Origin: Alphaproteobacteria bacterium
Lineage (GTDB): Bacteria; Pseudomonadota; Alphaproteobacteria; RF32; CAG-239
Length of the DNA: 64,000 bases
Assembly: GCA_048463395.1 (NCBI GenBank)
Contig: DBFWPL010000002.1
Span: 24,098-88,097 of the forward strand
Direction of reading: 5' to 3'
In this document: positions 10,983 through 15,198 of the stretch, piece by piece
How the letters are laid out: every line of letters starts with the position of its first letter
Position numbering within the stretch: the stretch's first letter is position 1
Program-made: the position numbers and the translations under genes
The notes under the pieces: model-generated
What the model was told of the DNA's origin: nothing
The model's input: only the letters and a program-made list of their open reading frames with translations
Database searches by the model: none

Positions 10983-11004
10983 AATACCCGAGGTTTTTTT
11001 TAAG
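10966..11004. terminator. rho-independent terminator (bidirectional) after galE
   Basis: acctcgggtaaaatacccgaggt hairpin followed by T8. Confidence 0.6.
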
Positions 11005-11362
11005 CATTATATGGGTAAGTTTGTTTGATTTCTGCGACTTTTTGGCGGCGGAGTTCCAATAGTTGAGAAATTTCGGCTTCAATATCCGGTGTGGAAATTT
11101 CATCCCGTAAACGGTTTATTTCCAAAGTCAGGCAGTCGGTTTCCATGGCGTAAGCACGTGAGCGGAGAATACGTATTTCTTCATTGCTTAATGTTGGTTT
11201 GGGCGGCAGAAATCCGGATAAATAAAATCTTCCGTCGCCGTTGGTTTCAACTTCCTGTTCCGTAAAGCCTGTGTTTAAGAAATAAATAGTATCAGGGTTT
11301 TCTCCGGCGGCGATACAGACTTCTTTAGTTTGTTGATTGATTATTTTGCTCAGTTTCTTCAT
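11000..11362 (-). CDS. phage tail-fibre assembly chaperone-like protein
   Basis: 120 aa. C-terminal ...LTLEINRLRDEISTPDIEAEISQLLELRRQKVAEIKQTYP resembles Tfa-type tail-fibre assembly proteins. It sits immediately downstream of, and overlapping, a tail-fibre-like gene. Confidence 0.4.
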   Translation of the reverse strand: MKKLSKIINQQTKEVCIAAGENPDTIYFLNTGFTEQEVETNGDGRFYLSGFLPPKPTLSNEEIRILRSRAYAMETDCLTLEINRLRDEISTPDIEAEISQLLELRRQKVAEIKQTYPYNA

Positions 11363-12329
11363 GTTTGCTTCCTTTCAAAGGGAAAAAAGTGTATAAGGGG
11401 TTATAACTGCTTAAGCCGGACCAGCTGATGACATCTCCCGTTCCGACCCAGACATCACGAGTTCTTGTAACGGAAACGCTTGGCATTTCGTCAAAAACAA
11501 TTCGGGTACCGTTGACGGTAACGTTAATTGCGGTTACGATTGCACCGCCCTGAAGGTTAATCATTCCCGGCTCTTGAGCCGTAAACGGGCTGGTTATGGA
11601 ATAACCGCGGGTATAGTCTGGAATGCCTAATTCAACGATGGTTGTTTTGGCTTCGGTTGTTAAATTGGCGGCGTTGTTATCCGCTTTGGCGGCGATTTGT
11701 TCTTCCAATTCGGGAAGAATTGTATCCATGTCTTCTTTGGTGTTGCGGATTTCTTCCAGATAAGTTTGTGTTTGCTGCAGAATTTTTGAATTGGTTTCCG
11801 AAGCTTCAAGAACGACGGAAATGTTTTTTTCCAAGTCGTTTAGTCTGAAAGAAGAGTTTTGCAGTTCTGTTTCATCATCACTCCAGACAATAGCTTTGCC
11901 GGCTTCCGGCATTGGCAGGCTGACGTCCATTTGTGTTGGGGCAGAAGGCGGAAAAGTTACCGTGCGTCCGATAAGGTCTTCAAGCTGCTCCATGCAGGCA
12001 AGCTGATAGTCAAATTCAGAGTTTACTTTGGAGCTCATAAACGGTCCGACTTCTTTGAAGTTGGTAGTTCTTTTAAATGGAATGCTGCGATACAGCGTGA
12101 TAACGGTTCCTTCTGCCGGCGGGGTATCAAAAATAACGGTACCGCCGTTGATGTCCGGAGATGAGCTCATGATAACGGAATAACCGTTTTCCAAGAGTTT
12201 GTTGTCCAGATATATTTTAACATCATCGGGGTTGAAAATCGGAAAATGGAAATAATATTCGGACCGGGTGCCGTCGGCAATAAGGCGTAAACGGGGTTTG
12301 ACGCTGCCGGAATCTTGAGGATTGGACAT
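11325..12329 (-). CDS. T7-type tail fibre-like protein
   Basis: N-terminus ...LIADGTRSEYYFHFPIFNPDDVKIYLDNKLLENGYSVI matches the pattern of the T7 gp17 N-terminal tail-attachment domain (DGSNRDFNIPFEYL...VVVTLIG...TDYRF). A central coiled-coil-like segment and a beta-rich C-terminus follow. GGAGA lies 5 nt before the second ATG (12329); the track start at 12422 is probably too long. Confidence 0.5.
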   Translation of the reverse strand: MSNPQDSGSVKPRLRLIADGTRSEYYFHFPIFNPDDVKIYLDNKLLENGYSVIMSSSPDINGGTVIFDTPPAEGTVITLYRSIPFKRTTNFKEVGPFMSSKVNSEFDYQLACMEQLEDLIGRTVTFPPSAPTQMDVSLPMPEAGKAIVWSDDETELQNSSFRLNDLEKNISVVLEASETNSKILQQTQTYLEEIRNTKEDMDTILPELEEQIAAKADNNAANLTTEAKTTIVELGIPDYTRGYSITSPFTAQEPGMINLQGGAIVTAINVTVNGTRIVFDEMPSVSVTRTRDVWVGTGDVISWSGLSSYNPLYTFFPLKGSKHEETEQNNQSTN

Positions 12330-12509
12330 TTCTTTCTCCATTGTTGTTAAGTTGAACAATCGAGAAGATAAACAAATAATAGTGGCAATTGTTCTTGTAT
12401 AATATTTTTTAGAAAAAGTCAAGGAATAAATTCCTATTTTATACGGTTGACTTTTGAATTATGATGATTACTATCTAATTTAGTTTTTAATTTATGAGGA
12501 GATTTGAAT

Positions 12510-13257: not shown

Positions 13258-13292
13258 TGAAGAAAACCCCTCTCATTTGAGAGGGGTTTGTT
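13258..13292. terminator. bidirectional terminator between convergent genes
   Basis: aaaacccctctcatttgagaggggtttg hairpin with flanking A/T runs. Confidence 0.55.
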
Positions 13293-13300
13293 GTTAATTG

Positions 13301-14029
13301 TTAAGGGAGTATGCCAACGCAAATGTGTGGAAATTTCATTTGAGATACTGCGGTCATTTGATAGTTATTGACCATGTTGTAGGGCGTTCCTCCCTTGAGC
13401 CAGATAGAAGCTGATTGTGTTCCTCCTCCGAATGTATATCCATCACTACTTATAGAAATTAAGTTTAAATTTTTAACAATTGGTGAGGTGCTGGTTGCAG
13501 TTTTTAAATTAGCTATCATGCTATATTTGTCTTTTAGCAGTTGGGCCTCTTCAAGGCTAGGCAGATGTCCGGTACAGAGATAGTTTGGTGCTGTGTTGAT
13601 GGCGTGGGCAATACTTGCACATTTATATTGACAGAATGTACTGTTATAACTTTCCGGGGTGCCGTTTCCTTCCAGTAGAACTAATTTGGTAGAGGCATTT
13701 ACCACTATACCGATAGCCTGTTTATCGGGTAAAGCTGTTGTCGGTCGGCTCCATGTGCCGTCTTTGTATACGATGTCTCCATCTTGCAGGGGAATGTTTT
13801 GAGCCAAAAATTCATCTCTGCTGAGTGATGTTCCGCAAGATATTTTACTTTTATCAAAAGGACATTTCAATGTTTTTAGGCCGACACATTGTGCTTCAGT
13901 CATTGTGTATCCTAATTCTTCACAAGAAGGAGGAGTGTCACAGGTTTGGGCGGAAGCTGTTGAGGCGGCGAAGGAGAAAGCGAGTATTGAAAGGCTAACT
14001 CCCCATATATTTCTAAAATTATCAGTCAT
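13301..14029 (-). CDS. cysteine-rich secreted protein (hypothetical)
   Basis: Signal peptide MTDNFRNIWGVSLSILAFSFAASTASA, then Cys-rich region with a CxxxGYT motif. Shares motifs with the upstream gene. Confidence 0.5.
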   Translation of the reverse strand: MTDNFRNIWGVSLSILAFSFAASTASAQTCDTPPSCEELGYTMTEAQCVGLKTLKCPFDKSKISCGTSLSRDEFLAQNIPLQDGDIVYKDGTWSRPTTALPDKQAIGIVVNASTKLVLLEGNGTPESYNSTFCQYKCASIAHAINTAPNYLCTGHLPSLEEAQLLKDKYSMIANLKTATSTSPIVKNLNLISISSDGYTFGGGTQSASIWLKGGTPYNMVNNYQMTAVSQMKFPHICVGILP

Positions 14030-14044
14030 AATCTTTCTCCTTGT

Positions 14045-14998
14045 TTATTTAGTTATAGGTTTCATCCAACATTTATACCAAGAGCAGGTATCAATGTCGG
14101 TGTATCCGGTTGCACATCCGGTAATGTAGTATTTGGAAGAGCATTTCTCAAAAGAGCAGGTGTACCCTGTCGGACAAGAGGTATAAGTACCGACATTCGG
14201 GCAGGATTTACATTTGTTGTATTTGGTAACGCCGTTTTCGGTACAGCTTTGTGCACCGGCTTCGTATCCCAAGTCGCATTCAATGAACTCAGCAGAGCAT
14301 GAGCAGCCGTTCTTTGAAGCGTTTACAACATAAGGGTATTCACAAGATTTACAGATATTTTTCGGGTAGAAATATGAAGTTAAATTCTGATTGCTGCGGC
14401 AGTAGTTGTATGCTTCCACGATATTAGAGCGGTAATCCTGTTCAGAGATGTATTCGTTTTCAGCGGAACAAGGGGTTAGAGAGCTATCGGTACATCGGCA
14501 AGCGTAATAAGTACCGGATTTATCGGAACATGTTTCGGTTTGGGCAAGTTTTCCGCAGGTTGAAAGTCTGTTGCTTTCGGTAACGGTATAGTAAGTTGTA
14601 TCGCACAAACAGGCTTTAAAGTATTTATTATCGTGAGGGCAGCTGGTTGTTTCGTCAGGGAAGGAGTTTTGAGGGCATTCCGTACGATTAAAGCCTTCGT
14701 CCCGGCATTGTAGGGAGGTGTCAATATTAGTATCGTTGTCAGAATAGTTAAGACCAAGACCATAGGCGTTTTTATCAGAGTTAACAATAGATCTGACAGC
14801 GGCGAGTTTGACGGTATTATCCGAGTTAAAAGAGGATATAGGCTTCAGCTCCATGGGTGTATGTGTGTGTGGTGTGTGTGTGTTTACCAGAGGGGTACCA
14901 GAGTAAGCCAAAGTCAGATGTTTAGCCTCGGAGACCTGAGGGTTGCCGGAGAGCAAGACGCAGGCAGAGGCCAGTAAAAAGAACTTAGTATCAGTCAT
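14045..14998 (-). CDS. cysteine-rich secreted protein (hypothetical), ~35 Cys
   Basis: Signal peptide MTDTKFFLLASACVLLSGNPQVSEA. HT(P) repeat encoded by an imperfect (GT)n tract. Repeated C-x-GYT motifs (CPTGYTC, GCATGYTD). Confidence 0.5.
   Translation of the reverse strand: MTDTKFFLLASACVLLSGNPQVSEAKHLTLAYSGTPLVNTHTPHTHTPMELKPISSFNSDNTVKLAAVRSIVNSDKNAYGLGLNYSDNDTNIDTSLQCRDEGFNRTECPQNSFPDETTSCPHDNKYFKACLCDTTYYTVTESNRLSTCGKLAQTETCSDKSGTYYACRCTDSSLTPCSAENEYISEQDYRSNIVEAYNYCRSNQNLTSYFYPKNICKSCEYPYVVNASKNGCSCSAEFIECDLGYEAGAQSCTENGVTKYNKCKSCPNVGTYTSCPTGYTCSFEKCSSKYYITGCATGYTDIDTCSWYKCWMKPITK
14856..14884. repeat. imperfect (GT)n/(CA)n dinucleotide tract inside the CDS (encodes THTPHTHTP)
   Basis: ggtgtatgtgtgtgtggtgtgtgtgtgtt as read in the sequence. 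Confidence 0.7.
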
Positions 14999-15053
14999 GG
15001 TATCACCTCATAGTAATTAAGAACTAAAGCCTATATACTATCCATACTAAGTC

Positions 15054-15066
15054 TTTTTTTTTTTTT
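15054..15066. repeat. homopolymeric T13 (A13 on minus) tract in the promoter spacer of the Cys-rich protein operon
   Basis: 13 consecutive T, located 56-68 nt upstream of the start codon at 14998. Flanked by TTGTTGCA (-35-like) and TAGTAT (-10-like) on the minus strand. Confidence 0.8.
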
Positions 15067-15072
15067 GCAACA

Positions 15073-15104
15073 AAAAAGTGCATCTGCCCGCACTTTTAAA
15101 AGGA
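15073..15104. terminator. hairpin terminator (bidirectional)
   Basis: gtgcatctgcccgcac hairpin flanked by A6 and T4. Confidence 0.4.
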
Positions 15105-15165
15105 GATTTCACATTTCTGTTACATTCCGGAAAACATCTCTAACTTTTGTCTGTGTTTGCCGATC

Positions 15166-15198
15166 ATAAAAAAGGCTCTCGTTTGAGAGCCTCGGAAA
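15166..15198 (-). terminator. rho-independent terminator of nagB
   Basis: ggctctcgtttgagagcc hairpin followed by T6 on the minus strand, just downstream of the nagB stop. Confidence 0.6.

Follow-up and report, generated by a model that had tools for sequence, protein, structure and literature searches.

Analysis of a 64,000-nucleotide (nt) stretch of DNA from an uncultured alphaproteobacterium (assembly GCA_048463395.1, contig DBFWPL010000002.1, positions 24,098 to 88,097; hereafter the window) revealed two adjacent minus-strand open reading frames (ORFs), here called A and B, which encode Cys-rich proteins of 317 and 242 amino acids (aa) with signals for export. A preliminary description made from the sequence alone had proposed an operon of two secreted proteins at these coordinates, which proved exact (Table 1), and had suggested that the proteins share paralogous extracellular domains. 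We find that such gene pairs recur in gut Alphaproteobacteria, and we tentatively propose that A and B each supply one subunit of a split surface adhesin.

Judged by the intergenic spacer, the ribosome-binding sites and the flanking terminators, A and B form a self-contained bicistronic operon, in agreement with the earlier proposal. Upstream of A, an intrinsic terminator after nagB (15193-15172) is followed by a leader of ~170 nt, with an A13 homopolymer (15054-15066) in the putative promoter region of the operon and the ribosome-binding site of A, GAGGTGA, at 15003-15009. The cleavable signal peptides described previously were supported by both sequence and hydropathy, each N-terminus having a basic n-region, a hydrophobic core and an A-x-A-type cleavage site. 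Protein A reads ...QVSEA before the cleavage site and KH after it, and this type of signal peptide is kept in all A-like proteins; B, with a clear hydrophobic core, reads MTDNFRNIWGVSLSILAFSFAASTASA followed by QTC, and the Ala preceding the cleavage site is at least 90% conserved. We rejected the possibility that the N-terminal Cys of B marks a lipoprotein, finding no lipobox ([LVI]-[ASTVI]-[GAS]-C) and the residues A-Q-T preceding the first Cys. In relatives of B the residue directly before this Cys is T, S, N, A, E or Q, a pattern that fits signal peptidase I cleavage after A-x-A, which would leave the Cys at mature position 2-3.

Among the 50 large ORFs of the window, A and B ranked as the top two for Cys content (8.2% and 3.7%, compared to a median of 1.1%), so that their description as Cys-rich stands, although A has 26 Cys (25 past the signal peptide) rather than the approximately 35 first counted; B has nine. 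Comparison of nine A-family members with identities down to 51% revealed 23 invariant Cys positions, indicating that the cysteines of A are structural and not an accident of composition. Between the signal peptide and the Cys-rich part of A lies a leader with the motif ...LV.THT.HTHTP.ELKPIS..N.D..VKLAAVRS, which is missing only in short A-like proteins encoded after a giant A-like gene. The region covering this leader (aa 26-88) is predicted to be disordered, with no predicted helix and a predicted local distance difference test score (pLDDT) below 50, and it is a candidate anchoring or sorting segment. Its conserved THTPHTHTP motif is encoded by an (AC)n-like tract in gene A (about 14855-14883). 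Past the leader, A consists of a module that it has in common with B, described below, and then a Cys-rich array. No structural neighbour of the modelled core (aa 90-260) was found in PDB, and the model gave no hint of an oligomeric state. In larger relatives of A (550-1000 aa), the array is lengthened by ~35-aa repeats of the form QPTC..GGY...C......GRTC...C. Another repeat unit, the ~40-aa C-terminal unit of A with the pattern CxCPNxGTxxSCPxGYxCxYExCxxKYYKxDGC, contains the C-terminal GYT strings of A (aa 275-300); it occurs about five times in tandem in a lone A-like of 645 aa (L013:7221-9158), which has no B-like gene after it.

Protein B combines an N-terminal 5-Cys module with a C-terminal domain that resembles the heads of known adhesins. 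Across 110 relatives of B, residues C30, C36, G40, C56 and C65 were invariant and C48, P57 and D59 were at least 90% conserved. The AlphaFold2 model of B was most confident in the module (pLDDT 90-94), also confident at aa 80-120 and poor elsewhere. Searched directly against Pfam PF07603 (Lcl_C), B gave no Pfam match at E ≤1 and did not reach the gathering score of 34.9 bits. Among its relatives, P0131 passed this threshold with 40.6 bits over residues 108-201, and P0011 and L006b scored 31 and 20 bits, respectively. BLASTP aligned residues 11-206 of B with residues 4-195 of P0131 (32% identity, E = 1e-18), placing GHLPSLEEAQLL of B opposite WYLPTKDDWSLL of P0131, within the Lcl_C match of the latter and including the motif W/H-x-LP-x2-[ED]; the homology of B to a bona fide Lcl_C member extends across the domain. 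The B-family consensus also carries the DUF1566 hallmarks W.LP..E and a C-terminal RC. From these alignments we conclude that B comprises a signal peptide, a 5-Cys putative adaptor module and a divergent DUF1566 head, probably C-type-lectin-like. Because the C-terminal half of B is such a head, adhesin is the best of the three roles first suggested (adhesin, receptor mimic and toxin-like).

Heads of several types follow the module. Among the 110 B-like proteins, 26 had an Lcl_C/DUF1566 head (E ≤1e-3), three a phage tail collar, two a BspA-type LRR/DUF285 domain and one a PKD domain, the others being unassigned; coiled-coil-like linkers were present in BRZ-type B-likes and not in B. Some B-likes (P0013, P0014 and P0015), from Alphaproteobacteria metagenome-assembled genomes (MAGs), are annotated as 'tail fiber protein'. 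In these, a Sec signal peptide precedes the Cys module, present twice, and a phage tail collar domain (PF07484, 8e-19), and they appear to be secreted cellular proteins rather than parts of a virion.

Sequence similarity between A and B is confined to one module. Both contain the pattern C-x3-G[YF]-x5-7-C-x7-11-CP-x-[DN]-x5-6-C, at aa 98-130 of A (CRDEGFNRTEC-x11-CPHD-x6-C) and aa 36-65 of B (CEELGYT-x5-C-x7-CPFD-x5-C). Profiles restricted to the module aligned over 30 columns (hhalign probability 88%, E = 3e-6), and a hidden Markov model (HMM) of the A module gave B 10.1 bits, with 8.8 bits for the best of 770 composition-preserving shuffles. The reverse test was weak, the B-module HMM giving A 2.9 bits, and a profile comparison of the whole A and B families detected no relationship. 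On this evidence, homology between A and B is limited to one module of ~30 aa, the remainder of the two proteins being unrelated, so that paralogy applies to this module and not to the proteins at large. The C-x(2-3)-GYT motif first noticed is real in both proteins, its literal strings lying at 275-280 and 295-300 in A and at 36-42 in B, but the segment of A homologous to the B module is the one at 98-130 and not that at 275-300.

Database searches indicated that both proteins belong to families outside the existing catalogues. Neither A nor B had a match in Pfam, NCBIfam or PHROGs; against PDB sequences, the B-family profile had none and the A-family profile nothing meaningful (one thyropin fragment, E-value 0.16). 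No curated library covers either protein, in line with the earlier failure to recognise a family, and no homology to a housekeeping periplasmic family emerged from these searches. Initial word-indexed searches yielded nine relatives of A and six of B; a profile search enlarged the A family to 37, and an exhaustive HMMER scan with B returned 613 cluster representatives at E ≤1e-3, 79 of them at ≤1e-10. At 50% identity, the family thus numbers at least 613 sequence clusters. Nearly all of the 613 match B only from aa 1 to ~118, a stretch that takes in its signal peptide and module and reaches into the first strands of the next domain. The named members and genome matches all came from uncultured Alphaproteobacteria MAGs; the source, where recorded, was animal gut (water deer cecum), and others included an 'uncultured Azospirillum sp.' bin and several BRZ bins. 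An exact-sequence lookup of B (P0010) found no gene on record with that product, and an identical gene is present in a near-identical strain described below. The A family, the A leader, the 5-Cys module and the two-gene arrangement are absent from every library searched and are undescribed there.

The unit that recurs is the gene pair. We define the cassette as an A-like gene (signal peptide, HTP..ELKPIS..VKLAAV leader, and an array starting with C-x3-GY...CP.D...C) directly upstream of a B-like gene (signal peptide, 5-Cys module and variable head); the pair in the window, with a leader-bearing Cys-rich A-like that carries the module directly upstream of a B-like, has this form. Besides the window and its near-identical strain, 14 or more loci of gut Alphaproteobacteria MAGs have an A-like gene with a B-like gene next to it, downstream and in the same orientation (L001/L002, L005, L006, L007, L008, L009, L010, L011, L012, L016, L017/L018, L019, L020), among relatives of only ~30% identity. 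The gap between the genes is 15-36 nt at all of these loci except L011. The cassettes, several of them per genome, are set among unrelated housekeeping genes, and their neighbours, different at each locus, include topoisomerase I, DprA, flagellar hook genes, Sua5 and serine dehydratase. One MAG carries three copies (L008-L010), and the metagenome of the near-identical strain contains at least four A-like genes (P0001, P0006, P0017 and P0002). Triplets were found at L001, L006 and L007, consisting of a giant A-like with the leader, a short A-like lacking it and a B-like. Single-chain fusions also exist (P0009, 514 aa; P0038, 594 aa; and P0028, 869 aa with two heads), in which an A-type signal peptide and leader are followed by Cys repeats and one or two DUF1566-type heads. 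An Lcl_C match was recorded for P0028 and P0038; the head of P0009, which has no Pfam Lcl_C match, was read from its sequence only. Conserved adjacency combined with Rosetta-stone fusions is a classical signature of proteins that act together.

Two of the loci have additional features. At L019:5001-6608 (ERZ28621406 scaffold_66, from the metagenome of the near-identical strain), both partners of a paralogous cassette end in a eukaryote-like ubiquitin, P0002 being an A-like with ubiquitin and the next gene encoding a 138-aa protein with signal peptide, 5-Cys module and ubiquitin; over 72 aa this domain shares 69% identity with human ubiquitin, and it ends in LVLR, with no GG tail. At L020:5535-6390 (IMGVR_UViG_3300031555_010385), a 135-aa ORF with signal peptide, module and Cys-rich tail precedes a B-like with a DUF1566-like head. 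This pair lies at the contig end; a 634-aa phage-like protein is encoded ~1.1 kb upstream of it, with one small ORF in between. The pair may be a host flank or a phage-borne copy.

The number of cysteines was odd in most members of both families. Counted from the first module Cys onward, 96 of the 110 B-likes had an odd number, with totals of 7, 9, 11, 13, 15 or 17; that these totals vary yet stay odd indicates that heads add Cys in pairs and that the module contributes five. Short A-likes were odd in 17 of 18 cases, mostly with 25 Cys, even at 30% identity, and the three fusions of A with a head had even counts. These parities suggest that an intermolecular disulfide may link A and B. Because the second module copy of P0013-15 lacks the first Cys, the candidate for the unpaired Cys of B is C30, its third residue after cleavage.

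Comparison of the window with a second, near-identical strain identified one variable region within the operon. A 20,954-bp contig from another metagenome (L003) is syntenic with the window and 99.8% identical to it, with the shared gene order nagA, nagB, A, B, SIMPL, tail-fibre-like gene, 120-aa gene and galE. Of 33 differences, 32 fall within 149 nt covering the end of A and the spacer, the other being at 14992; B and the other genes are identical. The patch at the A tail looks like localised recombination or gene conversion, and blastn of the patch against all retrieved loci found no donor closer than L003 itself. Local diversification at the C-terminal end of A would be typical of exposed surface proteins. 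We also considered phase variation through slippage at the A13 or (AC)n-like tract and found no evidence for it, since both tracts are unchanged between the two strains.

On one side of the operon lie nagB and nagA; on the other side come the SIMPL gene, the tail-fibre-like pair and then a galE-like epimerase, in agreement with the position between galE and nagB given in the preliminary description. The further claim that the genes sit in an accessory insert together with a tail-fibre module found no support: there is no break in GC content or skew around 11-15 kb, and the cassette occurs elsewhere without tail-fibre genes. Insertion cannot be shown here, because no such discontinuity exists and 21 kb are syntenic and 99.8% identical in L003. 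The tail-fibre-like pair (11000-12422, minus strand) is an orphan with no other phage genes around it and is 100% identical in L003. It comprises a tail-fibre-like protein of 334-365 aa, the first ~100 aa of which match phage tail-protein PHROGs (phrog_1640, 3e-10), and an overlapping 120-aa ORF with weak matches to small phage proteins; neither has a signal peptide, and the pair could be a remnant of a gene-transfer-agent or tailocin-type fibre. GC skew exceeded zero in nearly all 2-kb bins across the 64 kb (typically 0.1-0.25), regardless of gene orientation, and was near zero in only two (28-30 kb and 48-50 kb), which suggests that the whole window lies on the leading strand of one replichore.

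Table 1. Features of the A-B operon, in window coordinates
Feature	Position	Strand	Basis
Gene A, secreted Cys-rich "stalk" protein	14045..14998	-	ORF, Cys count, family conservation
A signal peptide, aa 1-25, MTDTKFFLLASACVLLSGNPQVSEA then K	14924..14998	-	Sequence; hydropathy peak 2.4
A-like N-terminal leader, aa 26-72 (~45 aa)	14783..14923	-	Kept in ~40 A-likes, including giant forms
Disulfide-rich core of A, aa 90-260, confidently modelled	14219..14731	-	AlphaFold2, pLDDT ~90
Shared 4-Cys module in A, aa 98-130, C-x3-GF-x4-C-x11-CPHD-x6-C	14609..14707	-	Regular expression, hhalign, HMM versus shuffles
Hypervariable patch, last ~47 codons of A and A-B spacer	14041..14189	-	Comparison of window with L003
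A-B spacer, 15 nt, ribosome-binding site AAGGAGA	14030..14044	-	Sequence; 15-36 nt in 13/14 homologous cassettes
Gene B, signal peptide, 5-Cys module and lectin-like head	13301..14029	-	ORF and HMMER search
B signal peptide, aa 1-27, ...AFSFAASTASA then QTC	13949..14029	-	Sequence, hydropathy
B 5-Cys module, aa 28-65, QTC-x5-C-x3-GYT-x5-C-x7-CPFD-x5-C	13835..13948	-	Conservation in 110 relatives, pLDDT 90-94
B head domain, aa ~80-242, divergent Lcl_C/DUF1566, putatively C-type-lectin-like	13304..13792	-	Homology to P0131
Bidirectional intrinsic terminator, ends A-B operon and convergent SIMPL gene	13264..13289	.	11-bp stem, T-runs on both strands
Putative operon promoter region	14999..15198	-	nagB terminator, A13 tract, GAGGTGA; identical in L003

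Taking the export and co-transcription signals, the Cys framework, the common module, the head homology, the gene pair, the fusions and the parity as observed, we propose that A and B together make up a two-subunit surface adhesin, a split "lollipop" made by an uncultured gut alphaproteobacterium and similar in layout to the collagen-like adhesin Lcl of Legionella pneumophila. We put the probability of this reading at about 45%. Both proteins would be exported by Sec and fold oxidatively in the periplasm, A giving the leader as a candidate anchor and a rigid disulfide-knotted stalk, a fold with no solved relative, and B the 5-Cys adaptor module and the DUF1566/Lcl_C C-type-lectin-like head, which would bind a ligand, probably a host or microbial glycan. 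Co-produced from one operon, the two are proposed to join, most likely through an intermolecular disulfide from C30 of B to a Cys of A that is likewise unpaired and may lie in the variable C-terminal tail, and the joined pair would rebuild the leader-stalk-head layout that relatives encode in a single chain.

Several points weigh against this proposal. The complex, its exposure at the surface and its ligand are predictions, the silence of the A model on oligomeric state lends the complex no help, and no secretion, usher or assembly gene was consistently linked to the cassette across the loci examined. The fusions connect stalk to head without a CPFD-type module, which implies that this module need not be a docking element, and the presence of the same extra domain, ubiquitin, on both partners at L019 fits poorly with a division into stalk and head. 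The parity counts are not independent, since Cys parity is inherited within families, and an odd Cys could equally serve homodimerisation or remain reduced.

Alternatively, A and B could be independent secreted proteins, co-regulated without forming a complex. A could then serve as a decoy or as a structural protein of the envelope or matrix, B as a trimeric lectin that resembles Lcl and is either soluble or self-anchored, and the common module as a unit for folding, oligomerisation or anchoring. In favour of this, both proteins have the module at their N-terminal base and not at ends that would complement each other, the fusions lack a CPFD-type module between stalk and head, the L013 A-like stands alone with no B partner, and some B-likes (P0013-15) are known as single genes only. 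What such independence leaves unexplained is the tight adjacency at 14 or more loci with relatives only ~30% identical, the existence of Rosetta-stone fusions and the odd Cys parity of both partners, and we consider it rather unlikely. The variety of heads on a constant N-terminal module (Lcl_C, tail collar, BspA-type LRR, PKD and ubiquitin), in a multi-copy and diversifying cassette, could instead point to secreted interbacterial antagonism of a bacteriocin-like kind, in which the B-likes would be polymorphic effectors with a trafficking module and swappable receptor-binding or toxic heads, and A a helper or carrier. In keeping with this, BfUbb, which is the one secreted bacterial ubiquitin characterised so far, acts as a toxin against bacteria (PMC5705921, PMC11467351). 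We judge this reading quite improbable: at the loci compared, no immunity-like small gene was conserved beside the cassette, no toxin domain was detected, and tail collar, LRR and PKD domains usually bind rather than catalyse. Toxic activity is not known for DUF1566, the head found most often, and the one such head that has been characterised belongs to an adhesin.

A phage connection was also considered, in which A and B would be phage-derived, tailocin or gene-transfer-agent receptor-binding accessories of the neighbouring tail-fibre-like genes (11000-12422). In the protein encoded at 11325-12422, the N-terminal domain is that of a phage tail protein (PHROG 1640, 3e-10), some module proteins bear a tail collar domain and the annotation 'tail fiber protein', and the IMG/VR contig L020 carries a module pair near a large phage-like protein. 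Against this stand the Sec signal peptides of A and B, which are normally absent from phage virion proteins, the convergent SIMPL gene and terminator that separate B from the tail-fibre-like genes, and the lack of phage genes at the other cassette loci. A narrow module alignment scan matched one of 2.9 million IMG/VR viral contigs, and neither A nor B had a PHROG match. We consequently rejected both proteins as members of a phage tail fibre or receptor-binding family and regard an accessory role of this kind as very improbable.

The split-adhesin reading can be extended further. In this extension, which as a whole we think unlikely, the cassette would be a new modular, disulfide-stapled surface display system of uncultured gut Alphaproteobacteria, in which a Cys-knotted A stalk of novel fold is coupled covalently, via one conserved unpaired Cys per partner, to a plug-in B subunit. 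The 5-Cys adaptor of this subunit would stay constant while the heads on it could be exchanged (DUF1566 lectin, tail collar, LRR, PKD or even a eukaryote-like ubiquitin), and gene conversion at the junction of the A tail and B would diversify what is displayed.

These gut Alphaproteobacteria are known here only from metagenome bins of animal gut and similar samples, and the cassette may bear on their attachment to hosts, food particles or other microbes. The family reported here numbers at least 613 clusters, is not described by any domain database and joins a stalk whose modelled core has no structural neighbour in PDB to a recognisable adhesin head. If the split, disulfide-linked model is true, it would represent a new way to build a Gram-negative surface adhesin and a scaffold for plugging in binding domains, and would show the large, function-poor DUF1566 family in another architecture in addition to that of Lcl. 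Both the core of the A family and the 5-Cys module merit structure determination and Pfam entries of their own.

Comparison of the cassette with known systems revealed partial similarities to several of them. The top Foldseek matches of A, none of them significant, were EGF-like and laminin-type arrays (Pfs25, NELL2 and MUC5B Cys domains), which resemble A in their dense, conserved Cys and C-x2-3-G-[YF] beta-hairpin-type motifs. With no Pfam or PROSITE EGF signature and no significant fold match, membership of A in the EGF-like family was rejected. The exchange of heads recalls fibres and adhesins with swappable tips, such as phage tail-collar receptor-binding proteins and the Bdellovibrio chimeric fibre proteins, among them Bd2740 (8oks). 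Unlike such fibres, the A and B proteins are Sec-exported, small (200-400 aa) and encoded with a separate Cys-rich partner gene, and the Cys module replaces the trimeric coiled-coil or beta-helical shaft. The ubiquitin of L019 is, like BfUbb of Bacteroides fragilis, a signal-peptide-bearing, eukaryote-like protein of a gut bacterium without a GG conjugation tail; in contrast to BfUbb, it belongs to an alphaproteobacterium and follows the 5-Cys module in one protein and an A-like stalk in the other, and it is absent from the window.

The closest parallel in layout is Lcl, in which an N-terminal anchor is followed by an elongated stalk of collagen type and by a DUF1566 head that is trimeric; after secretion, Lcl stays attached to the cell surface and binds glycosaminoglycans there (PMC11162425). 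The A stalk differs in being a disulfide-knotted Cys-rich array rather than a series of collagen-like GXY repeats, of which neither A nor B has any, and the A leader carries the unrelated motif HTP.ELKPIS...VKLAAV, whereas Lcl has an amphipathic helix that anchors it to the surface. The B head has four Cys, in contrast to the C-terminal domain of Lcl, which is without disulfides, and B itself falls under the Pfam threshold. Finally, the architecture of one chain is split over two genes. On this comparison, the cassette is best likened to Lcl-type adhesins in how it would work, as a system separate from the Lcl collagen-like family.

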